Source: Promethearchaeota archaeon (GTDB lineage Archaea > Asgardarchaeota > Lokiarchaeia > Sigyniarchaeales > SOKP01). From it: a stretch of DNA of 48,957 nucleotides. Numbering within the stretch: position 1 is the stretch's first letter; the number at the start of each line of letters is the position of its first letter. Position numbers and translations under genes: made by a program. Shown piece by piece: positions 13,902-28,224 of this stretch. Location: positions 1-48,957 of the forward strand of contig JAEOTA010000027.1 in NCBI GenBank assembly GCA_016840085.1. Reading direction: 5' to 3'. The notes under the pieces are model-generated. The model was not told where the DNA came from. It ran no database searches and was given only the letters and a program-made list of their open reading frames with translations.

Positions 13902-14468
13902 ATGGATATGAAGAAAAAAAGTTTTAATGAATTATTATCAATAGATAATGATGATAAAAAAATCATCGAAATGATTGAAAAAAATCCCGATATTACTCAT
14001 AGCGATATAGCTAAGGAGATCGAAAAATCTCAACCTGCTGTTGGTGCCCGAATCATAAAGTTAGAAAGAAAAAATTTACTTACAAAACAAGTGGGCTTTA
14101 ATATTAAAAAAGTTGATATTAAAGTTGCAATAGTTTATATTTCTACTAAAGATGTTGAGAATATTGTTAATAAAATTGAAAATTGTCCATTTATTAATCA
14201 TGCCTTTAAAATCTCTGGTGAATTTAATGTACTTTGTTTCATCGCAGCTTCTGATCTTCAAACAATCGAAAAACTAGTAGATTTATGTTTTAGGCGTGAT
14301 GAAAATGTTGTTAATGTCAAAACTAATATTTTAATAGAATCTATTCATGATTTTGTTGTCCCAATTGATTTTCAAATCGAAGATTTTGACGGGAGGTACT
14401 GTGGTCCTGAATGTAACATGCGGGACGAATTACCTAAGTTTAAATTCGGTCAGGAAATTGAGGAATAA
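13902..14468 (+). CDS. Lrp/AsnC family transcriptional regulator
   Basis: DNDDKKII..HTH (THSDIAKEIEKSQPAVGARIIKLE) plus RAM domain (FKISGEFN); C-terminal CGPEC. Confidence 0.9.
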   Translation: MDMKKKSFNELLSIDNDDKKIIEMIEKNPDITHSDIAKEIEKSQPAVGARIIKLERKNLLTKQVGFNIKKVDIKVAIVYISTKDVENIVNKIENCPFINHAFKISGEFNVLCFIAASDLQTIEKLVDLCFRRDENVVNVKTNILIESIHDFVVPIDFQIEDFDGRYCGPECNMRDELPKFKFGQEIEE

Positions 14469-14548
14469 GTAAATAAACTGGTTTTTCTTTCATTAAATTT
14501 TTTCTAAAGTAGAATTATAAAAACATATTGTAATATACAAAAAAAAGT

Positions 14549-15103
14549 CTAAGTATCAATCAATTTAACCAAACCCCTTTCTTTAGCTATTTTATACTTG
14601 CATTTTGGGCCACACCCTTCTTCAATGGTTGGGTCATGGTCTTCTGAATCAAAATCAATGGGTAGAATAAAATCTTTAGCTATATCAATAATTACTTCCA
14701 TTGATACTGAAGAGATCGAGGGATTATCTCTAAAATGATAATTGATTACATTATCTAATTTTTCGAGTTTAGAGCTTGCGAGTAGTATGCACACATTATG
14801 TGCCCCACTTAGACGAAATGCATTAAGCATAAAAGGACAAAAACGAGCCATATCAAGGATTTCTTCTGGATTCTTTGTTTGAATTTCTACAGTAGCTAAA
14901 AAAAGATCAACTTTCCTAAAATTGATACCTGGCTGGAATTGTAAAACGCCATTTTTTTCAAGTTTTTTAATTCTCATACCGACCGTTGGTTGTGATCTAT
15001 TTATCTTTGTAGCAATTTCAGTATGTGTAAGAGCTGGATTATCCTGAACAAGCGAGATAATTTGTCTATCAATATCATCAAGCTTTAATTTATCTGATAT
15101 CAT
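14549..15103 (-). CDS. Lrp/AsnC family transcriptional regulator
   Basis: LDDIDRQII..THTEIA..RSQPTVGMRIKKLE; FRLSG; C-terminal CGPKC. Confidence 0.92.
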   Translation of the reverse strand: MISDKLKLDDIDRQIISLVQDNPALTHTEIATKINRSQPTVGMRIKKLEKNGVLQFQPGINFRKVDLFLATVEIQTKNPEEILDMARFCPFMLNAFRLSGAHNVCILLASSKLEKLDNVINYHFRDNPSISSVSMEVIIDIAKDFILPIDFDSEDHDPTIEEGCGPKCKYKIAKERGLVKLIDT

Positions 15104-15187
15104 AATGATCCTAAAAAAATGTTTACTTTATATTAAGAAATAGTTTTTCAAATTTATCTATTTATAATTAATTAATCAATTTTATTA

Positions 15188-15856
15188 TTAAAACTCAGAT
15201 AATGGAATTCGTCCATTATAATAAATCATCCTACCATCAAAACTAATTTGGTTGGCAATAATTTTAACACCTTTTTTTCTTGCTTCACTTAATTTTTTTG
15301 AAAATTTTGGATCCGTTTTTGTATTCGGCGCAAAGCTTTCTGCCTTTCGGACAATTAAAAAAAGAATTATACCATTATGATTTATAATTTCCACCACATG
15401 ACGAGTTCCACGCTCAGTCGGAGCATCGGGAAATAATGCTATACCCTCCTTCACCAATGAGACACCTTTTACTTCCAATGGGACATCATCTAGCAGAAAA
15501 TCAATTCTACTATTGCCTATTTTTACTTCTCTCTTAATTTTTTTTACTTCTGAAAATTCTGGTAAATATTCAAATACTTTTTGAGCGATTCTCGAATGAA
15601 GCGCTGTGTCTATTAATATCCATTCTTCGTCTGCCTTAACCGCTTTAATATAATATTTCAACTTACCCTGTGAATATGTGAATAACACTTCAGCACCTTC
15701 AAAAAGCAATTCTTTTAACCTACCAGGATCATGAATATGAGCTGTTTCAATGCGGTCTTTATACTTGATTTCTCCTATAAACCTATTTGGTCTTGCTATA
15801 AATTCACCTTTCATTAAATTAGGGATCTCAAATAAAGGCCATTTTCTTACCGACAT
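15188..15856 (-). CDS. sfsA: DNA/RNA nuclease SfsA
   Basis: RPNRF, HIHDPGRLKELL, SRIDFLL, EVKGVSL, FPDAPTERG. Confidence 0.95.
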   Translation of the reverse strand: MSVRKWPLFEIPNLMKGEFIARPNRFIGEIKYKDRIETAHIHDPGRLKELLFEGAEVLFTYSQGKLKYYIKAVKADEEWILIDTALHSRIAQKVFEYLPEFSEVKKIKREVKIGNSRIDFLLDDVPLEVKGVSLVKEGIALFPDAPTERGTRHVVEIINHNGIILFLIVRKAESFAPNTKTDPKFSKKLSEARKKGVKIIANQISFDGRMIYYNGRIPLSEF

Positions 15857-15974
15857 TTAAAAATTTAATTTCTAAGGTTTTCTATTTAGATTAATTTATC
15901 CTGCTATATTAAAGGATTTTGTTATAATGTATAAACCAAATAGATAAAAACATATCCTTATTTGAGTAATTATA

Positions 15975-16214
15975 ATGAGTGAAGCAAAGAATCGAAGCAA
16001 TATTGAAAGCTATAAATTTCATCATATAGATATAAATAAATGTAGCAAATGTAAGGAATTTTCATGTGAAGATGTATGTTTTAGAGGTATTTATGAAGTT
16101 ATTAATAAAGATTCTACACCTAAATGTATAGTTGTCGAAGATCGTGAAGATCGCTGTGTAAAATGCCACATCTGCACAACTACGTGCAAAGCTAAAGCAA
16201 TAACTATAGATTAA
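15975..16214 (+). CDS. 2x[4Fe-4S] ferredoxin
   Basis: CSKCKEFSCEDVC and CVKCHICTTTC..AI. Confidence 0.85.
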   Translation: MSEAKNRSNIESYKFHHIDINKCSKCKEFSCEDVCFRGIYEVINKDSTPKCIVVEDREDRCVKCHICTTTCKAKAITID

Positions 16215-16271
16215 TATGGTTTAGATAGAACTCTAATTTTAAAAATAGATTTCTAATGAAATTTAAAAAAA

Positions 16272-16784
16272 TTAGAAGTTACATTGTTCACAACAATTAT
16301 TATTTAAAATAATTTGACCATTTTCAAGATTAAGGTTTATAGGCAACACGAAATCATTTGCAACATCAGCAATAACGTCTATGTGAACATTTAAAACATT
16401 TGGATTACTTCTGAAATGATTATTTATAATCTTATCAATATCTTTAAAGCTTAAACCAGCAATTATAACACTGATATTAATATCTCCACTTAACCTGAAA
16501 GCATTAAGCATGAAAGGACATTCTTTAACTATTTTAAAGGCTTCTTGGGGGTTTTTTGTTAGTATTTCGACTCGAGCAAAACAAAGATCTGCTACTTTAA
16601 TATTTATGCCTGCCTGAAATTTCAAAACTCCTAAATTTTCAAGTTTTTTTATCCTCATCCCTACAGTAGGCTGACTTCGATTCACATGTTCTGCAATTTC
16701 AGTATGCGTAAGATTTGGTTCTCTTTGGATTAAATCCATAATTTTACAATCGATATCATCAATTCCTATTTTTTTACTTAACAT
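16272..16784 (-). CDS. Lrp/AsnC family transcriptional regulator
   Basis: IDDIDCKIM..THTEIAEHVNRSQPTVGMRIKKLE; CPFMLNAFRLSG; C-terminal CCEQC. Confidence 0.92.
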   Translation of the reverse strand: MLSKKIGIDDIDCKIMDLIQREPNLTHTEIAEHVNRSQPTVGMRIKKLENLGVLKFQAGINIKVADLCFARVEILTKNPQEAFKIVKECPFMLNAFRLSGDINISVIIAGLSFKDIDKIINNHFRSNPNVLNVHIDVIADVANDFVLPINLNLENGQIILNNNCCEQCNF

Positions 16785-16819: not shown

Positions 16820-16859
16820 TAATATTTATATACTGCGGTATCGCGATATATAAATATTA
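16820..16859. promoter_or_regulatory. 13-bp inverted repeat (TATA-like boxes on both strands) around a GC-rich spacer in the divergent lrp/arsR intergenic region
   Basis: taatatttatata-ctgcggtatcgcga-tatataaatatta; contains the palindrome TATCGCGATA (16839-16848). Confidence 0.55.
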
Positions 16860-16982
16860 CGATAGTTTAATATTTAAATCTTTGTGATTTTTGTATTAAT
16901 AAGAAAAAATTAATAATCCATTAAAATAAGCTTTAAAAACTAATAAAAAGAAATATACTAATATAACAATTCTGGAAATTAA

Positions 16983-17318
16983 ATGAGTGAATTAAGAAAA
17001 TATACTATTGATTTTTTAAGAGTATTGGCTGATCCAACACGATTAGAAATTCTGGATCTTTTAAAGAATGGTGAAAAAAACGCATCAGAAATTCAGAAAA
17101 GTCTTAGTAGATCTCAATCAACAATTTCTAAGCACCTAAATTTGCTTACTGATAATAATCTTATTTATTTTAAGAAAAAAGATAATATAAAATATTATAA
17201 GATAAAAAATCTTGAAATTTTTAATCTAATTTCTGACATAAATTCAATTGTTGCGAAGATTAATAAAGAAAAGTTTAAAGATTTGAGAGATATCGATATT
17301 TACGATACATTATCTTAA
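16983..17318 (+). CDS. ArsR/SmtB family transcriptional regulator
   Basis: LADPTRLEILDLL...SQSTISKHLNLL..NLI..K.D..KYY. Confidence 0.92.
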   Translation: MSELRKYTIDFLRVLADPTRLEILDLLKNGEKNASEIQKSLSRSQSTISKHLNLLTDNNLIYFKKKDNIKYYKIKNLEIFNLISDINSIVAKINKEKFKDLRDIDIYDTLS

Positions 17319-17356
17319 CTTTTTAGTATATAAAATATATCTAAAAACTTTCAAAA

Positions 17357-17908
17357 ATGATGAAAACTAAAAATAACAATGAAGCTAATAAAGATACGAT
17401 GAAAATTGTATTAATTGGATTGGATAATAGTGGGAAAACTTCAATATTAAAGTGTTTGAAGGGTATTAAGAGGATATCTGCTTTTAATTTTCCAATGCCT
17501 ACGAAAGGTCTTGATGTACAAGATTTTGAAGCTTTAAATTCGAAATATACAATTTGGGATCTTGGCGGCCAAGAAATGTATATTGATGATTATTTAAAAG
17601 ATTTTGAGAAATATATCAAGAGAGCAAGTAAAATTATATACGTAATTGATATTCAAGATGTTAATCGTTATGAAATTGCGCTTGAATATATGAAAAACGT
17701 GATAAATTCAATTGATATTGAAACCTATATTGAATTTTCTATTTTTCTACATAAATTTGATCCAGACTTGGTATTTGATCAAAATTTAAATGAAAAAGTT
17801 ATTGATGATTTTGTTAAAAAAATAAAAGATATAACACCTCCAAAATTTATCAATTCGATTTATAAAACATCGATATTTGCAGTTTTTGAAAAATCAACAA
17901 TTAGCTAA
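17357..17908 (+). CDS. Small GTPase, Rag/Gtr-Arf-like (Asgard type)
   Basis: G1 GLDNSGKTS, G2 PTKG, G3 WDLGGQ, G4 HKFD, G5 TSIF. Confidence 0.93.
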   Translation: MMKTKNNNEANKDTMKIVLIGLDNSGKTSILKCLKGIKRISAFNFPMPTKGLDVQDFEALNSKYTIWDLGGQEMYIDDYLKDFEKYIKRASKIIYVIDIQDVNRYEIALEYMKNVINSIDIETYIEFSIFLHKFDPDLVFDQNLNEKVIDDFVKKIKDITPPKFINSIYKTSIFAVFEKSTIS

Positions 17909-17987
17909 CAAATTTTTTATAATTATTTTAAACTATTTTAATATCAATTAAAAATATTAGATTTTTATTGAACTAAATAATTTTAAA

Positions 17988-20888
17988 ATGTCGAACGAAA
18001 TTAAGCGAACTTTTTCACATAAAATAGCCCTAGAAATATTAGAATTTTCATTCTTTTTTCTGGGATTGTTTTTAACATATTTAACAAGTTTATATAACTA
18101 TATCTTATTTCATACTATTGCTGAGCTATTTAGCATAATAATAGCAGGAGGGGTGTTTTTTGTTGGTTGGAACTCGCGTAAATATATGAAGAGCTCTTTC
18201 TTTTTAATTCTTGGAACATCGTCACTTTTTATTGGCATTTTGGACTTAGTTCACACATTAGTATATCCGGGTATGCAGATTTTTGCAGATTCTGATACGA
18301 ATCTTGCAGCATCTCTTTGGATTGCTGCTCGATATCTTCAAGCAGGCTCACTTTTAATTGCTTCATTTTTAATTAATAAGAATTTAAAAACAGAATATCT
18401 AATTATTATCTATTTCAGTTTAACGACTATTTTAATAATTATTATCTTTAATAATTTATTTCCAGTTTGTTTTATTGATGGAGATGGTTTAACACAATTT
18501 AAAATTATAAGCGAATATATTATTGATTTCATATTATTGGCATCTCTTATGATAATAATTAAAAAAAGAGCTGAATTTGATAAAAAAGTCTTCTTTTTAA
18601 TTATAAGTTCAATTATAGCAACAATGATATCAGAATTAGCATTTACATTTTATCATGAAGCTTATGGGTTCCCTAATTTAATTGGGCATGTCTTTAAAAT
18701 AATATCGTTCTATTTTTTGTACAAAGGTATTATTCAAATTGGTATAGAAAAACCATTTGATCTTTTATTAAGAAAAGTAAAAAGAAGTGAATTAGAACTA
18801 AAAAATATTATTACCCATTCTAATGCGATTATTATGATGCTAGATGAAAATGGAAAGTTTACTTTAGTAAATAAAAAAGCTGCATCTCTATTGGGTGGAA
18901 ATCCTGAAAGTTTTATCGGAAAATCAATTAAACACGTTTTTCCCCAAGACTTAGGTGCGGAATACTTAAACAGTACTCTTGAATTAATTAAAACTGGAAT
19001 AAATCGTTCATATCAGCGAACATTTGATCTACCAACTGGTCAGAAGACATATTGGATAACTGAACAACCAATAAAAGATGTTGATGGGAAAAATCCATCT
19101 CTCCTAAGTGTTGCTACAGACATTTCTGAGAAAATAAAATCAGATAAATTAATCCAAGAAGCTGAAGAACGCTATCATACAATTTTTGAACAATCTCCTG
19201 ATGGTATACTAGTCACAGATCTTGAAACTTTAAGAACAGTCGAATTTAATGATGTAGCATGTAAATTATTAGATTATACCCATGAAGAATTTGAAAAATT
19301 ACAAGTAAATGATTATTATGTTATGGAAACCTCTTCTGAGACAAGACGCTATTTTGAAAAGGTATTAAGAGATGGAAGTGATGATTTTGAGTCGAAATTT
19401 CGTACTAAAAGCGGAGAAATTAAGGATATTTATATAAGAGCGAAATTGATATCTTTATCTGGAAAAAAATATTTTCAATTAATATTTCGAGATATAACAG
19501 AGCAAAAGAAAATTGAAGAATTAAAAACGAGATTAGCCTCTATTGTAGAATCATCCGAGGATGCAATTATAGGTAAAAAATTAGATGGAACAATTATCAG
19601 CTGGAATAAAGCTGCTGAGAAAATTTATTATTATTCTGCTGAAGAAATGTTGGGAAAATCAATCAAGCTTTTGTCACCTCCTAACTATGGTAGTGAGATC
19701 ATTGAAATATTAACAAGAATTAAAAGTGGAGAAAAACTTGAAGGTTTTGAAACTGAAAGAATAAGGAAAGATGGATCAAAAGTTCATGTCTCTCTTACAG
19801 TTTCAGCAATAAAAGATGCAAATAATAAAATTATTGGAGCATCCACAATCGCTCGAGATATTACCGAGAAAAAGAAAGCTGAAGAAGAAATTCGAAGAAT
19901 GTCAAAGTTCCCTTCTGAAAACCCTAATCCAGTGCTCAGAGTAAATAATGAAAAAGTAATCTACATCAATAAAATAGGAGAATCTTTATTTAATATCAGT
20001 AATGGAAGTCCAAATCCAAAAGTGCTAGAAGATTCAGTCGAAGATGCTTTTACTAATAAAAAGATCCAAGAACTTGAAATAAAATTAGATAATCGGTTTT
20101 ATACTCTTGTCTTGACTCCTGTAGAAAATGAGAATTATGTTAATATTTATGGTATGGATATAACAGAGCGTAAAAAAGCTGAAGAAAGATTATCACAACT
20201 AATTTCTACAGTTTCACATGAATTAAGAACTCCGATTACTGTTCTACTAATGTCAATAGAATATCTTACTAAACATAAAAAGTTTCTCGAAGAAGATTTA
20301 GAAGCGAAGTTAATGGACGGTATCTCAAGAAATATCCAGTTGCTAAATCAATTATCAGAGGATATTTTATTAATTTCAAGGATGGACGAGAATCGACTAG
20401 AATTTGAATGGAAAGATTATAAACCTAAAGAGATTATCAAAGAAATCTTATATCTTATGGAACCTATGGGTAAGGAAAAGAAGATAAGTTTTCAAGTTGA
20501 GGTAGATGAAAATATTCACTTAAGAGGAGATACAAGGAGAATAGATCAAGTTTTTCGAATTATTATCAATAATGCTATTAAATATTCAAGAGAAAACTCA
20601 AAAGTGGAAATTCGAGCTATAAATAATTATAAAGGGAAATATAATGTAAATGAAAATCCAGGAGTTCTCTTTGAATTTAAAGATTACGGGCGTGGAATCC
20701 CAGAGGACGAATTACCCAAAATTTTTGAACGATTTTTTCGTTCTAGTAATGTAAATGAAATTCCTGGAACTGGTCTAGGATTAGCGATCGCTAAAGATTT
20801 AATCGAGGCTCATAATGGGAGTATTTATATAGAAAGTGAATTAGAGAAAGGTACTACCTTTTATTTATATTTACCCAAAATTGAATAA
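17988..20888 (+). CDS. Membrane sensor histidine kinase: MASE3 + about four PAS + HisKA + HATPase_c
   Basis: NYILFHTIAELFSI MASE3-type multi-TM N-terminus; PAS repeats ending DISE/DITE; H-box SHELRTP, N-box NNAIKYS, DYGRGI, GTGLGL. Confidence 0.93.
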   Translation: MSNEIKRTFSHKIALEILEFSFFFLGLFLTYLTSLYNYILFHTIAELFSIIIAGGVFFVGWNSRKYMKSSFFLILGTSSLFIGILDLVHTLVYPGMQIFADSDTNLAASLWIAARYLQAGSLLIASFLINKNLKTEYLIIIYFSLTTILIIIIFNNLFPVCFIDGDGLTQFKIISEYIIDFILLASLMIIIKKRAEFDKKVFFLIISSIIATMISELAFTFYHEAYGFPNLIGHVFKIISFYFLYKGIIQIGIEKPFDLLLRKVKRSELELKNIITHSNAIIMMLDENGKFTLVNKKAASLLGGNPESFIGKSIKHVFPQDLGAEYLNSTLELIKTGINRSYQRTFDLPTGQKTYWITEQPIKDVDGKNPSLLSVATDISEKIKSDKLIQEAEERYHTIFEQSPDGILVTDLETLRTVEFNDVACKLLDYTHEEFEKLQVNDYYVMETSSETRRYFEKVLRDGSDDFESKFRTKSGEIKDIYIRAKLISLSGKKYFQLIFRDITEQKKIEELKTRLASIVESSEDAIIGKKLDGTIISWNKAAEKIYYYSAEEMLGKSIKLLSPPNYGSEIIEILTRIKSGEKLEGFETERIRKDGSKVHVSLTVSAIKDANNKIIGASTIARDITEKKKAEEEIRRMSKFPSENPNPVLRVNNEKVIYINKIGESLFNISNGSPNPKVLEDSVEDAFTNKKIQELEIKLDNRFYTLVLTPVENENYVNIYGMDITERKKAEERLSQLISTVSHELRTPITVLLMSIEYLTKHKKFLEEDLEAKLMDGISRNIQLLNQLSEDILLISRMDENRLEFEWKDYKPKEIIKEILYLMEPMGKEKKISFQVEVDENIHLRGDTRRIDQVFRIIINNAIKYSRENSKVEIRAINNYKGKYNVNENPGVLFEFKDYGRGIPEDELPKIFERFFRSSNVNEIPGTGLGLAIAKDLIEAHNGSIYIESELEKGTTFYLYLPKIE

Positions 20889-20918
20889 AATAAAATATTT
20901 TAAATATAAAATGGATCA

Positions 20919-20940
20919 ATAATATTGATATCAATATTAT
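20919..20940. promoter_or_regulatory. Perfect 22-bp palindrome upstream of the response regulator
   Basis: ataatattgatatcaatattat equals its own reverse complement; ends 13 nt before ATG 20954. Confidence 0.5.
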
Positions 20941-20953
20941 AGTGAAATGATTA

Positions 20954-21865
20954 ATGTCAGATGCAAAACCATTACTTATGGTTGTTGATGATAATGAAGA
21001 TATTTTGTTTAATTTAAAAATATTGCTTAAAGAAAAAGGTTATAATATAAAAACTGCTACTAACGGCAAAAAAGCGATTAAAATTCTTAACACTCTTAAT
21101 GCAATTCCTGATGTGATAATTAGTGATATTATGATGCCAGGAATGGATGGTTACGATTTTTTTTCAGCTGTTTCTAATAATCCCCAATGGAATCGAATTC
21201 CATTTTTATTTCTGACTGCAAAATCTACCCCCGAAGATATTCGATTAGGTAAAATGCTGGGGGTTGATGACTACATCACAAAACCCTTTAAGAAAGAAGA
21301 TTTAATTGCATCAATTTCAGGAAAAATTGCTCGAAATCAAAAATTAAATCTTATTGATAAGGAAATTAAACAATTATTATCCTCTTTACATATTAGAATG
21401 CAACCTTCTATTCCTGATAAAGATCAACCAAAATTGTATTTACTGTTAGTGTATTGGGATGACGTTATAGGTCCAGTCTTAAAGAGATGTTTTCCCTCCG
21501 ATAAAAATTTTCCTATTTCAATAAGTGAAATAGGCAAGCAGTTATTCCATGCAGCAACTTCAATTTATGGGCATGATAAAATCACAAGAGCTCAAGGCTT
21601 TTTATTGAATATCGAAAACATTAATAAAAAAGGGTATGTATTTTTTGATTCATATCCCGCTGAAAATGAAAGATATGGAGAAAAACAATACATGTTATCT
21701 GCAATCTCTTCAAATTTAACTTATTTTGATTCTCTTAAAATTAGGCAAGTATTGAAAGAGATCTCAGAAAAAATTAAAGATAAAAAAGATTGGGAAATAC
21801 AGGAATACTGGGAAAAATTATTAGATATATTATCCAAAGACTCATTTTTATTACATACTCAATAA
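20954..21865 (+). CDS. Response regulator: REC domain fused to a C-terminal longin/uDENN-like domain
   Basis: REC: VVDD, phosphoacceptor D58 (SDIMMPGMDG), T88, K110 (ITKPF). Output domain starts LYLLLVYWDDVIGPVL, resembling the uDENN/longin beta1-beta2 motif. Confidence 0.88.
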   Translation: MSDAKPLLMVVDDNEDILFNLKILLKEKGYNIKTATNGKKAIKILNTLNAIPDVIISDIMMPGMDGYDFFSAVSNNPQWNRIPFLFLTAKSTPEDIRLGKMLGVDDYITKPFKKEDLIASISGKIARNQKLNLIDKEIKQLLSSLHIRMQPSIPDKDQPKLYLLLVYWDDVIGPVLKRCFPSDKNFPISISEIGKQLFHAATSIYGHDKITRAQGFLLNIENINKKGYVFFDSYPAENERYGEKQYMLSAISSNLTYFDSLKIRQVLKEISEKIKDKKDWEIQEYWEKLLDILSKDSFLLHTQ

Positions 21866-22050
21866 GACTCTGTATCTTTTAACAAAACTATAGAATTTTA
21901 TAAATTAAAAATGAATCTGCTTTTTAGTCTAGTAAATAAGTAAGAAAAATTTATTTCGTTAATAATCTATAAAAAGAACTTTTAAATCAGATATTTTGGA
22001 TGATGTTATTAAGAAATCATACTATAAATTTTGCTTATAAGGTGAAAAAT

Positions 22051-22365
22051 ATGTCTGAAGTAAAAGAAGAAGAAAAGTTTGTAAGATCCCCCGAAGTATG
22101 TTCTTGGGCTGATGACGAAGAAAATGTTTATAAAATTGAAATTCAACTGCCTGGAGTAGAGAAAGATTCGATTAAACTAAAAATGCATGACGATAGTTTT
22201 TTCATTAAAGGAGAAACCGAAGATACTATCTATATTGGTTCCTACGGTGTTTGTTGCCCGATAAAACCAGAAGAAGCAAAAGCAGTTTATAAAAATGGGC
22301 TACTGAAGATAGAAGTACCATTTAAAGAGCCCGAGTTTCATAGTATAGAGATAAACGTTGAATAA
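22051..22365 (+). CDS. Hsp20/alpha-crystallin family protein
   Basis: IEIQLPGVEKDSI and AVYKNGLLKIEVP; ATG 5 nt after AAGGTGA (ORF track start 22000). Confidence 0.9.
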   Translation: MSEVKEEEKFVRSPEVCSWADDEENVYKIEIQLPGVEKDSIKLKMHDDSFFIKGETEDTIYIGSYGVCCPIKPEEAKAVYKNGLLKIEVPFKEPEFHSIEINVE

Positions 22366-22524
22366 ATTAATTTTTTTTCTATTTCTATTTTAATTTTAAG
22401 AAAAATATTTTAATTATTTAAACTCTATTTTAATTCAAACGCATTTTTGATAGAAATAACTACATTTTATTTTAAATAATGAATTAATTGATCATTTTAT
22501 TTATTAGTTAGGAGTGAAAAGACT

Positions 22525-23055
22525 TTGAATTTTATTCACGTTGAAACTGATGAATATTATCCATTTCTGATTGAAATATTCTCAGAATATCTTGAATGGG
22601 TTTTATCAATGTGTGAAAAGGAGTTTAATGTCAGATATAACGTAAAAGAATTGGTTAAAGAAGCTGTTGAGAGATCGATAGAAGAAATAGATAAATATTT
22701 TCCTCCAGAAGGACGTCTAATTCTATGCACAGATGAAACTCGAATTGTTGCTACAGCTTCCATGAGAAAGATAGGAGATAATATTGGAGAGATTAAAAGG
22801 ATGTATGTTCAATCTTTATATAGAGGGAAGGGTATTGCTAGAGAGTTACTTGAAAGATTGATTAAAGAAGCACAATATATTGGATATTCAAAACTTATGT
22901 TAGACAGTGGTCCTTTCATGAAAGAAGCTCAAGGTTTTTATCACTCAGTTGGATTCACAGAGATTGATCCATATGCTGAGAGTGAGGTTTTTCAAGAAGG
23001 AATCCCTGAAGAAATTAGCCAAAATTGGATATTTATGGAAATGCTTTTAAAATAA
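22525..23055 (+). CDS. GNAT family N-acetyltransferase
   Basis: GEIKRMYV..YRGKGIA; LDS...EAQGFYHSVGF. Confidence 0.92.
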   Translation: MNFIHVETDEYYPFLIEIFSEYLEWVLSMCEKEFNVRYNVKELVKEAVERSIEEIDKYFPPEGRLILCTDETRIVATASMRKIGDNIGEIKRMYVQSLYRGKGIARELLERLIKEAQYIGYSKLMLDSGPFMKEAQGFYHSVGFTEIDPYAESEVFQEGIPEEISQNWIFMEMLLK

Positions 23056-23087
23056 GAACAAGATATATTTAGAAAGATAAATTCATA

Positions 23088-24017
23088 TCAATATTCTATA
23101 TTCATTTCCTTGACATAATCAAAAGCTGAATATGCTGCTATAACTCCTTCAGAAACTCCTGTTATTGCTTGCTTAAAAGGGGCATCAGCAACATCTCCAG
23201 CTGCAAAAATACCAGGAATGCTTGTTTCTGATTTACGATTAATTATAATTTCACCTTTATCATTTGTTTCAACACCAATACGTTTTGCTAAATCAGAATT
23301 AGGATCTGACCCAATTTCGATGAATACTCCGTCTACTTCAAATTCTTGTCCATTGTCAAAAATAACAGAGTTCACTGTATTATCACCCTTGATTTCGACA
23401 ATATTAGTATTATTAATTATTTCTATTTTGTCATTTTCATAAACCCTTTGCTTATTTATTGGTTCTGCTCGTATTTCTTTACCACGATAAATTATATAAA
23501 CCTTTTGAGTGTTTTGAGCTAAAAATAATGCTTCTTTAGCAGCAGAATCACTCCCACCAATGACACAAACAACCTTATCTTTATAAAATGGACCATCACA
23601 GGTAGCACAATAAGACACACCTCTACCAGCAAACTCTTCTTCACCAGAAACACCCAATTTTCTCCTTTCGGAACCTGTTGCTATACAAATAGAATAAGCT
23701 TTAAAATTTTGAAAAAAGGAATGTAATTCAAAGTGATCATCAATTTTATCAATAGTCCGTATCTCATCTGAAATGTATGGGATATTAAGTGAGTCCATAT
23801 GATCCTTAAACATATCCATTAAACCTTGACCACTTATTGATGTAATCGCAGGATAGTTCTCAACAATATGAGTCGTGGCAATTAAACCTCCAAATGTTTT
23901 ACCAATAACTAACACATCCATAGCAAATCTGGCTGCATAAATTGCACAGCCGATTGCAGTAGGTCCCCCTCCTAAAACGATAAGGTCAAAAGTTTTTTCT
24001 AAATCAATACCTTCCAT
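23088..24017 (-). CDS. trxB: Thioredoxin reductase
   Basis: GGGP FAD motif, ATGS, GRGVSYCATCDG, GIFAAGD; ATG 1 nt after the upstream gene's TGA. Confidence 0.95.
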   Translation of the reverse strand: MEGIDLEKTFDLIVLGGGPTAIGCAIYAARFAMDVLVIGKTFGGLIATTHIVENYPAITSISGQGLMDMFKDHMDSLNIPYISDEIRTIDKIDDHFELHSFFQNFKAYSICIATGSERRKLGVSGEEEFAGRGVSYCATCDGPFYKDKVVCVIGGSDSAAKEALFLAQNTQKVYIIYRGKEIRAEPINKQRVYENDKIEIINNTNIVEIKGDNTVNSVIFDNGQEFEVDGVFIEIGSDPNSDLAKRIGVETNDKGEIIINRKSETSIPGIFAAGDVADAPFKQAITGVSEGVIAAYSAFDYVKEMNIEY

Positions 24018-24018
24018 A

Positions 24019-24702
24019 TCAATATTGAACACGATTACTTCCCCCAATCAAGGCTCTTAATATCTCATTTGGTCCAACCATTCCAACTAAGGTCTTTTGA
24101 TCGTTTATAATAGTATAGGGAACGCCTGCAGCATCATAGTATCGAGCAATATCGGGATTTGCTAGAATATCAATAATTACTGTTCTAACTTTTCCCCTAG
24201 ATGCAATAGCAAAATCATTTGCTATCATACAAACTGTAGGACAGTAAGGGCAGGTTTCGGTTATCATGACCTTTATTGTGGAAGGTGGGATCCTGTCTAA
24301 GTTTTGCTTTATCGTTGCTTCATAATAATTGGGCGCTCCAGCAAAAGCAAATATTGCTTGGATGAAGGGTTGAATCTCACCGCCTTGTGGAGCAGCTAAA
24401 TATCGTATAAATTCTCTTCCTTGGTCATCTATGAATAAGAGGGTAGGTACTCTCGTAATATCATACTTTTTAGCCAATTCGGGGTTATCTTCAATACACA
24501 ATTCTTCGATTGTCAGCATTCTGTTTGAATTCTCTTCATAGATTCTTAATAATGCCATAAATTGATTACAATCCATGCACTCTCTTATCTGGCTTCCATT
24601 TGGTTGTTTTTCTTTACACGTGATCACCTTTAACTTAACAGGTTTTTTTAATTTAGCCATTTCTTTTTTGATTATTTCCTTATATCTATTTTCTTGAGAC
24701 AC
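24019..24702 (-). CDS. Protein disulfide oxidoreductase (PDO / AhpF-NTD-like, two Trx folds)
   Basis: N-terminal CMDC, C-terminal CPYC, RVP and GVP cis-Pro motifs. Confidence 0.88.
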   Translation of the reverse strand: MSQENRYKEIIKKEMAKLKKPVKLKVITCKEKQPNGSQIRECMDCNQFMALLRIYEENSNRMLTIEELCIEDNPELAKKYDITRVPTLLFIDDQGREFIRYLAAPQGGEIQPFIQAIFAFAGAPNYYEATIKQNLDRIPPSTIKVMITETCPYCPTVCMIANDFAIASRGKVRTVIIDILANPDIARYYDAAGVPYTIINDQKTLVGMVGPNEILRALIGGSNRVQY

Positions 24703-24725
24703 AGTCTTACATCACCCCATAATAA

Positions 24726-25430
24726 TTATGCATACATTCCTCCAAAATCTCGTTTTCCTTTCGTAAGTTTATCCAGCAAATCCTGAGAGGTAAACATTCC
24801 ATATATATGATCTTTCTCATTTATAACCGTGTAAGGAACTCCCTGAACTTGGTATTTCATTCCAATGTCTGGGTTTAAATTAACATCTATTACTTCTGCT
24901 GAAATCTTTCCTTTAGAAACTATTGCAAATAACGTTAAGACTGGCACGGTCTGTGGGCAGTAAGGACACGTAGGAGTTATAAAGATTTTCATTTTCGCCT
25001 TTTCTATCTTTTTGAGATGAGTAATGATTTGATCCGCATAATAAGGTCTTACTCCCGAAAAATATTGTATACTATTAAGAAAGGGTACAAATTCAGATCC
25101 AGTTGGATGTGCCAAATATCGAATGATTTCTCGACCATTTTCATCAACAAATAGTATAGCTGGAATTTTAGCAACATTAAATTTTTTAGCTTCTTCTTCA
25201 TTTTCTTCAGTAGAAATTTCTTCAATTATTAATTTTCCTTTGGATAAATCTTCTAGAGTTTTTAGTAACTCATAAGTTCCTTCACAAGCCATACATTTTC
25301 TTAATTTTGTCCCATCTACTTGTGTTTTAAAATCAGTGAATAGTTTAAGTATAACTTTCTCTTTTAATTTGCTCATTTCTCTTTTTATATTATCCATTTC
25401 ATTTTGTGAAAATAGCATAAAATCACCCAT
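24726..25430 (-). CDS. Protein disulfide oxidoreductase (PDO / AhpF-NTD-like), paralogue
   Basis: CMAC and TPTCPYCP; KIP and VQGVP. Confidence 0.88.
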   Translation of the reverse strand: MGDFMLFSQNEMDNIKREMSKLKEKVILKLFTDFKTQVDGTKLRKCMACEGTYELLKTLEDLSKGKLIIEEISTEENEEEAKKFNVAKIPAILFVDENGREIIRYLAHPTGSEFVPFLNSIQYFSGVRPYYADQIITHLKKIEKAKMKIFITPTCPYCPQTVPVLTLFAIVSKGKISAEVIDVNLNPDIGMKYQVQGVPYTVINEKDHIYGMFTSQDLLDKLTKGKRDFGGMYA

Positions 25431-25613
25431 ATTTGAATCTAATATGAATATTTGCTTTCATACTTAAAAGAATTTTTCGTTTAAATTATAAAAAAAACTA
25501 GTTTTCACTTGTGATTGGATAAAATATTCTAATATTGTTTAATAATTTGCAAAAAATTAAATTAATATAATTAACCTTAATTTCAGATAAATGCTTGCCT
25601 GAATTTGGATAAT

Positions 25614-26588
25614 TTATAATAAAAGTTCAAATAAATCTTTTGCTTTTGGTTGAATTTTGCACAGTTTACTATATCTCCTCAGAATCCACCAACAACTAAC
25701 GCAGTAAGTAGTACAATAATCTCCTTTAAAATCCTGCATCCTTTTGCGAGCAATTTTATCGATAACATCAGTACGCCCCATCCATCCTGTTCCACCACCA
25801 CAACACCAATGCGGTACATCTAAAACAGTATAACCGGATTGTTCCAAAATATTATTTACAAATTTTTCAACATCTTTTCTACTGCGATTCATAAGTTGGC
25901 ATAAATGCTGTATACTTACTGATCCTGATTTTTTAGTTTCTGATGGTTTTAAATAATCCGATACATATTTAATTTCAATATCTTTATTCATTTCTGGCTT
26001 ATAATACGTTTTATATAAATAATAACATGCAGGACAAAGGCAAATTATTCTTTTATAATTATTAAAAATCTCAATATTTTCTTTTTTACATATTTCAAAC
26101 TCTTTTTTTAAGCCACCTGCTAATAAATGCCAACCACAACAAATTTCTGTGTCTAATGTTGTGAAGTTAATCTTTTGTTTTAGGAGATATTGAAGCGCAT
26201 GCTCAGTATATTTCGGGATTCTAATTGTTGATAGGCAGCCCATAAAGAAAAGAGTATCAGATTTTTCTGGTATTTCTTTAGGTTTATTGATTCGCATTTT
26301 ATTAGTGGGATATGGTGTCCGATATTTTTCAAAATATTCGATCATTTCATCCTTTTCACTAAAAGTATTACCATCTTCGATAAACTTTTGTTTTAGCAGA
26401 AATCTTTCAGTTTCAGTTTCACATTCTCCACAATGAACACAATTGTAGAGTTTTTTATAAAATTCTTGAGTAAATCTACTACTCTCTTTATTTGTAATTA
26501 ATTCCTTAACTTCTTTATCAGTAAGGAAATTATCTGGATCAACTTCATCAGTAGGATAATTTTTTCTTCCTTTTATTCTTTCTTTCAT
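25614..26588 (-). CDS. Fe-S oxidoreductase with CCG domains (HdrD/GlpC-like)
   Basis: CVHCGEC; FMGC, ICCG, CPAC, HWCCGGG, YCVSC. Confidence 0.85.
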   Translation of the reverse strand: MKERIKGRKNYPTDEVDPDNFLTDKEVKELITNKESSRFTQEFYKKLYNCVHCGECETETERFLLKQKFIEDGNTFSEKDEMIEYFEKYRTPYPTNKMRINKPKEIPEKSDTLFFMGCLSTIRIPKYTEHALQYLLKQKINFTTLDTEICCGWHLLAGGLKKEFEICKKENIEIFNNYKRIICLCPACYYLYKTYYKPEMNKDIEIKYVSDYLKPSETKKSGSVSIQHLCQLMNRSRKDVEKFVNNILEQSGYTVLDVPHWCCGGGTGWMGRTDVIDKIARKRMQDFKGDYCTTYCVSCWWILRRYSKLCKIQPKAKDLFELLL

Positions 26589-26694
26589 AGTTAGGTCAAT
26601 CAAATAGAATTGATTTTATTTAGTAAAAGCATCCTTTCAGGTTTATATGTTTTAACTTTTTAATACTTACAGATAAAGAAAAAAAAGAGATAAT

Positions 26695-26850
26695 TTAGTC
26701 CTTTTTAAGTTTGACATTTGTTCTTTGAACCCCAACTTCCTTATTGCTTGGCATAGGAGTTCCACAGTGGTCTCTTAGCCTTTCATTTTCCTTAAAGGCG
26801 TGATCAAGTTCTTCTTCTAATTCCTCATCAGTCAATTCTTTGTCTGACAT
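26695..26850 (-). CDS. Small hypothetical protein (51 aa), not in the ORF track
   Basis: MSDKELTDEELEEELDHAFKENERLRDHCGTPMPSNKEVGVQRTNVKLKKD*; GC-richer than its flanks, followed by a T-run on the coding strand. Confidence 0.6.
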   Translation of the reverse strand: MSDKELTDEELEEELDHAFKENERLRDHCGTPMPSNKEVGVQRTNVKLKKD

Positions 26851-26969
26851 ATTTAACAAAGAGGAACAGCATTATTTAAAAATTAAGATTATGAAATATA
26901 CAAAGTCGATTATACAATTATTTTTAATACAAAAAAACAAGAAATAAAATGTTATAATTTAAAAAATTA

Positions 26970-27338
26970 CTATTTTTTAGATTTCAAATATTCAATAACA
27001 GCATTCTCTTTTTCAATTGGACGCCTTTCAGGAACATTTATATAATCTATACCTTTATCATAGAAATTAAGACTCATATAAAGATTACAATAACAAGCCC
27101 CAAATTCTTTTATATCTTCAGGTGCATAATCACAAGGACATATAAGATCTCTGTCTAAATCTCTTTTCCCACTCGCAAGCCTACATGGGCATGATTGATA
27201 ACCATAATTGTTCTTGTTATTTACTAATCCATCAATTAATTCATTGAGGGTTTGTCCATCCTTATTTAAAATCCAATTATTTTTTTCAGCAACTTGCTTT
27301 ACATATTTATTCATACCTTCAATTGTTTCCATTTCCAT
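26970..27338 (-). CDS. Ferredoxin:thioredoxin reductase catalytic subunit
   Basis: CPC...CPC...CYC triad (SCPCRL, ICPCDY, ACYCNLY). Confidence 0.93.
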   Translation of the reverse strand: MEMETIEGMNKYVKQVAEKNNWILNKDGQTLNELIDGLVNNKNNYGYQSCPCRLASGKRDLDRDLICPCDYAPEDIKEFGACYCNLYMSLNFYDKGIDYINVPERRPIEKENAVIEYLKSKK

Positions 27339-27347
27339 TAAATCACC

Positions 27348-27677
27348 TTATTTTTTTAATAATTCTTTATATTTTTCTGGATTATATCCAATTACATGCC
27401 CTTTTTCACATACAAGAAAAGGATATGAAATTCTGGATTGATATTTTGATCTGAGGTACTCTATGATTTTTGCCTTGTCATTTGGATCAATTCTATCGAC
27501 ATCTATATATCTATATTTCATATTGTTATCCTTCAAGAAACTTTTGCACTTTTTACACCACATACAAGTAGACAATGTGAACACTAAGATATTTTCTTCA
27601 ATACTTTTTTCACCATCGACTTCTTTTACATGCCTTTCAATTAGTTCTTCAGCCGACATAATTATATTTTTTCCCAT
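27348..27677 (-). CDS. Glutaredoxin-like protein (probable FTR partner)
   Basis: LSTCMWCKKC, ISYP cis-Pro, VIGY; 9 nt upstream of FTR. Confidence 0.88.
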   Translation of the reverse strand: MGKNIIMSAEELIERHVKEVDGEKSIEENILVFTLSTCMWCKKCKSFLKDNNMKYRYIDVDRIDPNDKAKIIEYLRSKYQSRISYPFLVCEKGHVIGYNPEKYKELLKK

Positions 27678-27927
27678 TTAATATTGAAATTTTTATATTG
27701 TTTCTTATTTTAAATTACAATTTTAGTTTTTAAAAATGTAGTTATTCAAGAAAAGAACCGTAAAAAATAAGAATATATTGCTAATAATTTATTAAAAAGT
27801 CCTTAGATTAGAAATATAAATAAAGCAAATATTGTTTAGTTTATATTTTTATAAACTATTTTAAGCCTTTTTTTAAATTATAGAATATAGACAAATTATT
27901 TATATTTCTCTATAATATCTTTTAATT

Positions 27928-28224
27928 ATGGCTGAATCAAATATTCCTATTGTGATAACAAAAGAAGGATGTCATCGTTGCCATGAATTAAAAGAATGGC
28001 TAAGAGAGAATGATGTCCATTACATAGAAAGAGATATTGATGACGAGGAATTTGTCCACGAATTACTAGAAGATAATAATTTTCTAAAAACCTTTTGTGA
28101 TGCAGATGGATGTATTATAAATACTCCTGCGGTATTACATAAAGGAAAATATTGGTTTAAAGAACTCTGGGGGATAAATGGACTCAGAATCAAGGAAGCG
28201 AAGAAATTATTTGGTAAAAAATAA
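27928..28224 (+). CDS. Glutaredoxin-like protein
   Basis: TKEGCHRC, Y.E.DI, NTP; extra CDADGC. Confidence 0.8.
   Translation: MAESNIPIVITKEGCHRCHELKEWLRENDVHYIERDIDDEEFVHELLEDNNFLKTFCDADGCIINTPAVLHKGKYWFKELWGINGLRIKEAKKLFGKK

Follow-up and report, generated by a model that had tools for sequence, protein, structure and literature searches.

A four-gene cassette in a Lokiarchaeia (Promethearchaeota) genome probably encodes a two-component pair with a GAP output: a response regulator whose longin domain would act, gated by phosphorylation, as a GAP for the co-encoded Rag-like GTPase. Asgard genomes encode dozens of small GTPases and longins and, to our knowledge, none of these has so far been matched to its regulator. 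Genome layout seldom permits such matching (PMC10933270). The cassette names a kinase, a longin and a Rag-like GTPase (966, 303 and 183 aa) amenable to purification and assay, and it offers a small system for testing the origin of the folliculin/C9orf72-type GTPase off-switch. If the GAP activity is real, it would be a prokaryotic case of longin arginine-finger catalysis acting on a Rag-like GTPase and would add a GAP to the known response-regulator outputs. It would also support a picture in which Asgard eukaryote-type GTPase switches were run by prokaryotic two-component sensors before TOR.

The window, meaning the whole 48,957-nucleotide stretch of DNA analysed, comes from a 4.7 Mb genome that is 98.8% complete. 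Open reading frame coordinates confirmed the four co-oriented genes described in the first-pass annotation, all on the + strand with gaps of 38, 79 and 65 nt. Pfam matches and residue positions likewise upheld its assignments of an ArsR protein, a GTPase with G1-G5, a MASE3/PAS kinase with an H-box and a regulator with D58, T88 and K110. The features, in window coordinates, are:

16272..16784, - strand: Lrp/AsnC-type regulator, divergent from the cassette (Pfam HTH_AsnC 1e-10, AsnC_trans_reg 5e-5)
16839..16864, no strand: CG-containing repeat/palindrome in the divergent promoter region, made up of TATCGCGATA and one more CGATA, conserved among close loci
16983..17318, + strand: ArsR/SmtB-type winged-helix regulator, 111 aa (Pfam HTH_5 E 3e-12, and NCBIfam)
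17357..17908, + strand: stand-alone Rag-like small GTPase, 183 aa (Pfam Arf 4e-21, Gtr1_RagA 9e-17)
17988..20888, + strand: membrane sensor histidine kinase, MASE3-PAS(3)-HisKA-HATPase_c, 966 aa (Pfam MASE3 2e-82)
20954..21865, + strand: REC-longin response regulator, 303 aa (Pfam Response_reg 1.5e-26, residues 9-121)
20954..21340, + strand: receiver domain, PhoB/OmpR-like (top NCBIfam matches PhoB, MtrA, VanR and YycF)
21419..21865, + strand: longin output domain, FLCN/C9orf72/SMCR8/NPRL2 type, not followed by a DENN domain (AF2 model, Foldseek, VIA)
21455..21475, + strand: W168-D169-x3-G173-P174 hairpin motif, aligned residue for residue to C9orf72 W33-D34 and G38-P39
21671..21673, + strand: Arg240, a candidate arginine finger; its loop, b4-b5, joins model strands E80-90 and E98-107

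The kinase and the receiver form a classical two-component pair, a HisKA/HATPase kinase adjoining a receiver with intact D, T and K residues. The kinase has its phospho-accepting histidine at H744 (codon 20217-20219) and intact N, G1, F and G2 boxes; its H-box carries E-x-x-T, which we take to suggest kinase/phosphatase bifunctionality. It is the sole MASE3 protein of the host genome, and its orthologues range from 617 to 977 aa. The receiver contains D12, D13, D58, T88, Y107 and K110, with the phospho-acceptor Asp58 encoded at 21125-21127. Conservation was near complete at D58 (90/91), R97 (90/91), K100 (89/91), D105 (91/91), D116 (86/91), K/R124 (91/91) and R/K127 (90/91), and the a4-b5-a5 face is charged and conserved. 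Pfam detected neither a kinase-borne receiver nor an HPt domain in the four cassette proteins; hybrid kinases were found only at other loci (L102, L105 and L125), where a hybrid kinase-REC-longin adjoins a Rag-like GTPase. The term phosphorelay, used in the first-pass annotation, therefore had to give way to a simple two-component pair, there being no HPt or hybrid step in the cassette.

The output domain was not recognized by family models: Pfam gave nothing above noise for regulator residues 122-303, and NCBIfam likewise failed to recognize it. A search of the ESM Atlas features with this domain gave only sub-0.9 leads, one of which had NPR2 in 19% of its members. The AF2 model of the regulator (pLDDT 82) has the longin element order bb-a-bbb-aa, and Foldseek and VIA gave FLCN, Lst4, C9orf72, NPRL2 and SMCR8 as the best structural matches (Z 10-11.7). 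The VIA scores were 11.7 for the FLCN complex (6nzd_H, rmsd 2.6 A, 133 aligned), 11.5 for Lst4 and 10.9 for C9orf72-SMCR8, so the longin-like output proposed earlier from sequence was borne out by topology and by matches to longin GAP subunits. A profile of the family had C9orf72 as its only PDB sequence match (E 0.0016); making the profile more diverse brought in no FLCN, SMCR8 or NPRL2 sequence and weakened the C9orf72 match to E 0.03. The GP hairpin and a C9orf72-type WD are both present, with W conserved in 91/91, G in 91/91 and P in 89/91. Arg240 is conserved in 85/91 homologues. In eukaryotic longin GAPs the arginine sits on the b4-b5 loop; the profiles reached C9orf72 only and so left Arg240 without a direct match to SMCR8 R147 or FLCN R164. 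GAP activity depends on C9orf72 W33/D34 and on SMCR8 R147 (PMC8213707). No DENN or NPRL2 domain follows, the regulator ending with the longin at residue 303. As we read it, the regulator would work like the longin GAP proteins yet is not an orthologue by architecture.

The GTPase is Rag-like rather than Arf, and the first-pass label of Rag/Arf-like held in its first half only. Gtr1_RagA scored above the Pfam cut-off, and the best PDB sequence matches were LokiRagO (8yl2, E 7e-25) and 8zla/9m28 (E 4e-23), with Arf/ArfR matches (E ~1e-12, Z ~16.5) ranking below the Rag matches. The modelled GTPase of an orthologous locus (L016) gave Z 19.9 to 8yl2, 19.3 to Gtr1 and ~19 to RagA, aligning to RagA only up to residue ~175. 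The N-terminus is polar and variable and lacks the amphipathic helix of Arf proteins. All motifs are intact (G1 21-28, G2 Thr49, G3 with Gln72, G4 132-135 and G5 171-174), and the catalytic Gln72 (codon 17570-17572) is invariant. The chain stops 13 residues past the G5 Thr (12-15 in orthologues) without the roadblock domain by which Rag proteins dimerize, and the last helix is shortened or swapped for an extended tail; the protein may need a further partner for folding or nucleotide binding. Its nearest solved relatives in the G domain, LokiRagO (8yl2) and LokiRagM (8zla/9m28), differ in running well past that domain (342 and 385 aa; roadblock-like in 9m28). The residue preceding the G2 Thr is Pro, so the GTPase has no intrinsic Arg there and would need an arginine supplied in trans.

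The first-pass annotation had left the output as GAP or GEF. The motifs narrow this to a probable GAP, because the longin has the GP, WD and Arg motifs and the GTPase has Gln72 but no intrinsic Arg before G2. A phosphorylation-gated GEF of the DENN, Mon1-Ccz1 or TRAPP type that turns the GTPase on is improbable. Its appeal is that DENND1 (Z 9.2), Mon1-Ccz1 (Z 9.0) and TRAPP/sedlin (Z 9.7) are among the structural neighbours, some eukaryotic longin/DENN proteins are GEFs, longin/roadblock platforms are mostly GEFs (PMC10933270) and Liu et al. proposed a GEF function for another Asgard DENN operon (bioRxiv 10.1101/2020.10.19.343400). However, the GP motif is reported missing from DENND, TRAPP and adaptin longins (PMC12290439), the regulator has no DENN catalytic domain, and both the conserved Arg and the model in the GTP state are what a GAP would show.

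Prediction of a longin dimer bound to the GTPase gave a score of 0.73, versus 0.23 for the best of three controls, in a GAP-like geometry with at least 86% contact agreement between runs and a partner pLDDT of 81. The pass mark was reached by 58/80 solved and 2/110 mismatched pairs, rates that apply here only roughly as our own alignments and ligands were used. In the model the longin contributes hairpin 168-175, helix 1 (195-203) and Arg240, and the GTPase contributes P-loop D23/N24, switch I (45-52) and Q72-Y75. The hairpin is the main contact to the P-loop and Gln72, and Arg240 touches Asn24 of the P-loop with an expected error of 1.9 A. The regulator-GTPase pairing foreseen in the first-pass annotation thus passes its controls in prediction, and supports binding only, not GAP activity; the pass may reflect memory of the solved FLCN-RagC and C9orf72-SMCR8-ARF1 complexes, and close cousins of a true partner also pass, so the score may not discriminate among the 10 related (~90 in total) GTPase-like ORFs of the host genome.

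The predicted interface on switch I/II is one that effectors use too, and signal flow could run the other way, with the GTPase as the input: its GTP-bound form would bind the longin as effector and tune the receiver or kinase. Precedent comes from the conservons (AGPS; CvnA kinase, CvnB roadblock, CvnC and CvnD GTPase), actinobacterial operons that were already known to link a histidine kinase with a small GTPase and in which the kinase-GTPase interactions depend on the activities of both. We consider reverse flow unlikely, since the regulator has no other output domain, Arg240, WD and GP are conserved along the nucleotide-facing edge, and the occurrence of longins on PAS-only or kinase-only N-termini (L076, L087 and P0259) fits an output module.

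The GAP reading gains from the linkage of the genes, which the first-pass annotation had set as a test. The cassette order was kept in 34/34 close loci having enough flank (33 with the full four-gene order and one with three genes to the contig end), and none breaks it. In 29/53 distant or paralogous loci the REC-longin has a Rag-like GTPase no more than three genes away, adjacent in 16; the background is 1.4% of genes, and the figure for the other kinase/HATPase genes of the host genome is 0/13, although kin loci are not independent. Rearranged forms include ArsR-GTPase-regulator without an intervening kinase (L097, L101, L118 and L131), GTPase-regulator (L093 and L107) and the reversed regulator-GTPase order (L126-L130). 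Three GTPase-longin fusions all carry WD, GP and Arg: P0182, P0196 and P0301, the last a degenerate REC-GTPase-longin fusion of Heimdallarchaeota LC_3. Paralogous cassettes each retain their own GTPase clade (distance correlation 0.72). Such an arrangement exceeds what chance would give. Synteny among close loci is extensive in any case and takes in Hsp20 and thioredoxin genes, as would be expected if the genes were merely a co-regulated block under ArsR/Lrp with the longin binding, for example, membranes or roadblock proteins. This explanation is very improbable, given that the GTPase-REC-longin linkage outlasts these flanks, which genus g12 and more distant loci have lost, and given the several independent gene orders and the three fusions. 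With all three computable refutation tests favorable, the first-pass interpretation is supported.

A more serious though still unlikely alternative is that the longin is a GAP for other Rag- or Arf-like GTPases, or works only as a heterodimer with another longin, the adjacent GTPase being one client or a co-regulated neighbour. The host genome has 10 related GTPases (~90 GTPase-like ORFs in total), eukaryotic longin GAPs are heterodimers (PMC12290439 and PMC8213707), and some loci carry two REC-longins in tandem, one of which lacks the Arg (L093, L095, L118 and L119, and the LC_3 pair in L138). Moreover, some REC-longins have no GTPase nearby: 20/53 distant loci lack a small GTPase within three genes, some being cut by contig ends. 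Countering this, a single member of the longin family was found in the 98.8%-complete host genome, GTPase and longin remain together through rearrangement and duplication, and the GTPase-less Heimdallarchaeum copies (L112 and L113) have also lost the Arg. In closed f3 genomes of the same order (G135, G138 and G143) the query found no REC-longin, giving weak or long TPR-longin-sized matches only.

The GAP reading suggests the following mechanism. Because the motifs are intact and the adjacency is fixed, we infer that the MASE3-PAS kinase autophosphorylates on His744 and passes the phosphate to Asp58 of the neighbouring regulator. The phosphorylation state of the PhoB-like receiver would govern assembly of a longin dimer, and we lean slightly toward phosphorylation promoting rather than preventing it. 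The dimer is predicted to cup switch I/II of the GTPase, one longin copy giving the GP hairpin and the Arg240 finger and the second helping to hold the GTPase, whereupon GTP hydrolysis via Gln72 would turn the GTPase off. A homodimer could replace the eukaryotic heterodimer because each chain combines the C9orf72-type WD with a putative SMCR8/FLCN-type Arg. A fuller and more speculative scheme, which we hold to be possible though doubtful, is that His-Asp phosphorylation dimerizes a single-chain longin GAP uniting catalytic features that C9orf72 and SMCR8 (or FNIP and FLCN) divide between them, and thereby switches a roadblock-less Rag-like GTPase with the co-encoded ArsR protein as effector. 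The Arg-less tandem pairs would then be independent Asgard steps from a homodimer to a catalytic/non-catalytic heterodimer.

Eukaryotic longin GAPs (FLCN-FNIP on RagC/D, GATOR1 NPRL2-NPRL3 on RagA/B and C9orf72-SMCR8 on ARF) have in common with the cassette the longin fold, GP hairpin, C9orf72-type WD, a loop Arg that in the model faces the nucleotide, a presumed Rag-like client and, by prediction here, binding of switch I/II across two longins. The regulator differs in having an N-terminal receiver in place of a C-terminal DENN or NPRL2 domain, in carrying WD and Arg on one chain (hence probably a homodimer), in its proposed control by His-Asp phosphorylation and in the location of its gene beside that of the presumed client. 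The first-pass statement that no characterised example exists stands for the fixed GTPase partner of a longin/two-component fusion, none being found in the literature searched, and fails for the components, since such fusions, Asgard GAP-motif longins and kinase-GTPase conservons were previously published. Liu et al. (bioRxiv 10.1101/2020.10.19.343400, Fig. 5c) reported NPRL2-like longin fusions with two-component domains in Asgard archaea, a class to which the REC-longin regulator very likely belongs. The accessible text of that preprint ties the NPRL2-like domain to amino-acid starvation by analogy and names neither a GTPase partner nor a cassette, nor catalytic residues or a mechanism. Asgard longins with GP and an Arg finger have been proposed as GAPs (PMC12290439, Traffic 2025); those longins are of the FLCN/SMCR8 type, noted mainly in Heimdallarchaeia, and the paper raises the question of ArfR or Rag GTPases as their partners without mention of 'receiver' or 'two-component', whereas the cassette supplies a named partner and an input. 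Conservons and Myxococcus RomR-RomX/MglA/MglB resemble the cassette in wiring a prokaryotic kinase or receiver to a small GTPase and a longin/roadblock-fold regulator. Conservons have an MglA-type GTPase, a separate roadblock protein and no response regulator; the cassette has a response regulator and lacks an MglB roadblock gene, a CvnC gene and an MglA-type GTPase. The RomR output is unrelated to longin, unlike the cassette receiver, which is fused directly to a GAP-type longin; RomRX was recently described, in the accessible part of the report, as an effector rather than a GEF (PMC13408092).

What the GTPase controls is a matter for a tentative best guess, the ArsR protein encoded just upstream, in which case the final output would be transcriptional. 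The ArsR gene is immediately 5' of the GTPase gene in 33 close and 11 distant loci, and the protein, which has a conserved C-terminal helical tail, is a candidate downstream effector or autoregulator. This tail might complete the short last helix of the GTPase, but a tethered L016 ArsR-GTPase model (one stop read through with table 6, purely as an artificial linker device) had pLDDT 86 and pTM 0.56 and gave no confident docking. At E 0.001 a search for longer proteins containing the ArsR C-terminal half found nothing, a weak piece of evidence. The Hsp20/thioredoxin neighbourhood was set aside as a target pathway because its conservation is confined to genus g1.

Upstream of the cassette a sigma-70 promoter scan, a model unsuited to archaea, performed at chance level (44 vs 42). 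Upstream conservation of the palindrome region is seen at close loci of genera g1 and g12 and not at distant loci; the palindrome is complete mainly in g1. The Lrp gene travels with the cassette, being found at every close locus that reaches that far. The form CGATA-N5-7-ATATTACG occurs once in the 4.7 Mb genome, and the repeat at 16839-16864 is a candidate operator, either for the Lrp protein or for ArsR.

The cassette comprises four co-oriented open reading frames, and their positions confirm the gaps of 38, 79 and 65 nt reported previously:

16983-17318, + strand, ArsR regulator
17357-17908, + strand, small GTPase (183 aa)
17988-20888, + strand, histidine kinase (966 aa)
20954-21865, + strand, response regulator (303 aa), an N-terminal receiver followed by the output domain

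Pfam searches agreed with the first-pass annotation, assigning an ArsR HTH to the first protein, an Arf/Gtr1_RagA G domain to the second, a MASE3-PAS3-HisKA-HATPase make-up to the kinase and a receiver to the regulator, in which no Pfam domain was recognized after residue 121. The sequences contain D12, D13, D58, T88, Y107 and K110 of the receiver, His744 and all kinase boxes, and G1-G5 of the GTPase. The host is an Asgard archaeon, with relatives classed as Promethearchaeota (Lokiarchaeota), and its genome is 98.8% complete with 7.6% contamination. The observation is real and conserved, and the earlier reading is right in outline.

The proposal that the regulator output is longin-like was borne out by structure. 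Residues 146-303 were predicted to fold as bb-a-bbb-aa (pLDDT 82), and Foldseek ranked chains of GATOR1, Lst4 and FLCN-FNIP2 at the top (E 3e-4 to 2e-3). An independent structure search gave a Loki longin and the FLCN complex (Z 11.7), Lst4 (11.5), C9orf72-SMCR8 (10.9 and 10.1) and GATOR1 (10.1), with VAMP7, sedlin, DENND1 and Mon1-Ccz1 just below them (Z 9.0-9.8). When a 71-sequence profile was compared with PDB sequences, C9orf72 was the sole match (E 0.0016), W168-D169 aligning on W33-D34 and G173-P174 on G38-P39; no direct alignment of Arg240, located in the b4-b5 loop, to SMCR8 or FLCN was obtained. W168 and G173 are invariant among 91 full-length homologues, P174 is present in 89 and Arg240 in 85. 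The GP pair is found in GAP-type longins and is absent from those of DENND, TRAPP and adaptins (PMC12290439), and a GEF role for the longin seems very unlikely. GAP activity requires both C9orf72 W33/D34 and SMCR8 R147 (PMC8213707), residue sets that are split over two proteins there, whereas the regulator has the WD pair and, in Arg240, a candidate for the arginine in one chain.

The partner had been called a Rag/Arf-like GTPase, and it is the Rag-like G domain that stood. Its closest solved relatives by sequence are LokiRagO and LokiRagM, and an orthologue model lies closest to LokiRagO, Gtr1 and RagA (Z about 19-20), with Arf lower (about 16.5). The orthologues end 12-15 residues past G5, and the model lacks the final helix, its alignment reaching only RagA residue ~175; as there is no roadblock domain, the protein is not a full Rag. 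All 52 orthologues and paralogues compared have Gln72. Since a proline precedes the G2 threonine, unlike MglA with its intrinsic switch I arginine, the GTPase should depend on an arginine supplied in trans.

The pairing of regulator and GTPase passed complex prediction with two longin copies, GTPase, GTP and Mg, scoring 0.73 versus 0.23 for the best control; 58 of 80 solved and 2 of 110 mismatched pairs reached the passing mark, counts that apply only roughly here. The runs showed at least 86% contact agreement, with a partner pLDDT of 81. The 168-175 hairpin is predicted to contact GTPase D23, N24, P48, K50 and Q72-Y75, and Arg240 the P-loop residue N24, in an interface that includes helix 1 of both longins and resembles the ARF1 pocket of C9orf72-SMCR8 (PMC8213707). 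Similar complexes have already been solved, so the pass may reflect structures memorized by the prediction model, and it does not establish specificity for the co-encoded GTPase.

The receiver is closest to those of PhoB, MtrA, VanR and YycF. Phosphorylation of this family leads to dimerization via the a4-b5-a5 face, a face strongly conserved in the regulator homologues. The simplest overall model, which we consider probable, is that the kinase would phosphorylate Asp58, the receivers would dimerize, and the longin domains would thereby form a dimer acting as a GAP on the Rag-like GTPase; we are less sure of the direction of gating. In 44 loci a GTPase of this type is directly preceded by an ArsR gene, and ArsR is the best candidate effector, although neither a tethered model nor a search for longer proteins sharing the ArsR C-terminal half revealed a physical link to the GTPase. 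Information flowing in reverse, from GTPase to the two-component pair, is decidedly unlikely.

The GTPase-kinase-REC/longin linkage proposed at first pass held in all close loci long enough to show it. The full ArsR-GTPase-kinase-regulator order occurs in 33 of 41 loci from GTDB genomes, one has the last three genes up to the contig end, seven are too short to show the full order, and none breaks it. The kinases span 617-977 aa. For REC-longin loci that are distant or paralogous (53 in all, kin not being independent), a Rag-like GTPase lies within three genes in 29 and directly adjacent in 16; against this, the host-genome background stands at 1.4% of genes, and none of the 13 other kinase/HATPase genes has such a neighbor. 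Arrangements include ArsR-GTPase-regulator with the kinase missing or relocated, regulator-GTPase, GTPases flanking a hybrid kinase-REC-longin, and a 462-aa Rag-like protein adjoining the regulator. In two-cassette genomes each cassette has its own GTPase clade (distance correlation 0.72), identity between paralogues being 41-43% for the longin and 27-31% for the GTPase, against about 64-72% between orthologues; deep branches of the two trees disagree. Co-regulation of the genes as the sole explanation is highly improbable.

If a related longin-TPR type is counted, 123 of 134 genomes in the host's family encode a member of the longin family, as do all 22 in a family further away (which includes one genome named Heimdallarchaeota) and 167 of 400 across the phylum. 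Variant loci are:

L112:5625-6530 and L113:5537-6442, REC-longins of Ca. Heimdallarchaeum endolithica and aukensis, Arg240 to Leu and D169 to His; the kinase gene is convergent, and no GTPase gene lies close by
L102:6674-10845, L105:4900-8914 and L125:2163-6621, hybrid kinase-REC-longins whose flanking genes are a Rab-like GTPase fusion and a longer Rag-like GTPase (about 310 aa), within an operon conserved in genus g13
L076:6319-8001 and L087:8592-9596, PAS-longins lacking a receiver (one-component versions), L087 without the Arg loop
L094:3818-5899, L121:7725-9656, L122, L123, L124 and L132-L134, longin-TPR relatives (about 620-720 aa), longin N-terminal, TPR repeats where checked, the same Arg motif in most; in L123 an Arf-like GTPase fusion lies between two such genes
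L093:5160-7090, L095:7973-9856, L119:6988-8927 and L118:4473-9957, two REC-longin genes each, one Arg-bearing and one Arg-less
L138:4728-8212 (GCA_001940645.1, Heimdallarchaeota LC_3), tandem REC-GTPase-X-longin fusions of 567 and 573 aa

In a library-wide search with the longin profile (345 clusters at E 0.001), the same longin turned up fused to GTPases: to a degenerate Ras-type one in P0182, to an Arf-like one in P0196 and, in P0301 of Heimdallarchaeota LC_3, in one chain behind a degenerate receiver, an Arf-like GTPase and a spacer domain, in that order; WD, GP and Arg are kept in all three. The tandem paralogue of P0301 has a good receiver and lacks these residues. Of the two L138 proteins, the first combines WD/GP/Arg with a degenerate receiver, the second a good receiver with a longin that is degenerate, and the pair is possibly a catalytic/regulatory heterodimer. 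The Arg-bearing/Arg-less pairs recall FLCN/FNIP and NPRL2/NPRL3. The Arg is present in both members of the tandem pairs of L099 and L120. That the cassette longin GAP serves another client or several, or acts as a heterodimer, is unlikely, though the likeliest alternative to the GAP model with the co-encoded GTPase.

In Asgard archaea, many proteins join an NPRL2-like longin to two-component domains, according to a preprint that proposes two-component-centered growth control (Liu et al., bioRxiv 10.1101/2020.10.19.343400). GP-plus-Arg longins have likewise been reported in these archaea, with the question posed of which GTPases are their clients (PMC12290439). In bacteria, conservons and RomR/MglA couple small GTPases to kinases or receivers, in architectures different from that of the cassette. 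Among the open-access papers searched we found no paper naming the cassette and no characterized receiver-longin GAP. The fusion type and motif are thus already published; the fixed GTPase partner, the fusion evidence and the passing complex model are added here.

A divergent Lrp gene travels with the cassette in the close loci, and Hsp20/thioredoxin neighbors are absent outside genus g1. Only in that genus is the cassette flanked by a redox cluster (22000-28224; assignments partly by eye) of Hsp20, GNAT, thioredoxin reductase, two thioredoxin-fold proteins, an Fe-S protein, a ferredoxin-thioredoxin-reductase-like protein and glutaredoxin. Three Lrp/AsnC-like paralogues with Cys-rich C-termini lie within 3 kb at 13902-16784, amid them an SfsA-like gene (by eye), and are conserved in the genus. 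The otherwise very AT-rich divergent promoter contains a conserved CG-rich repeat/palindrome (16839-16864), the extended form of which occurs once in the genome.
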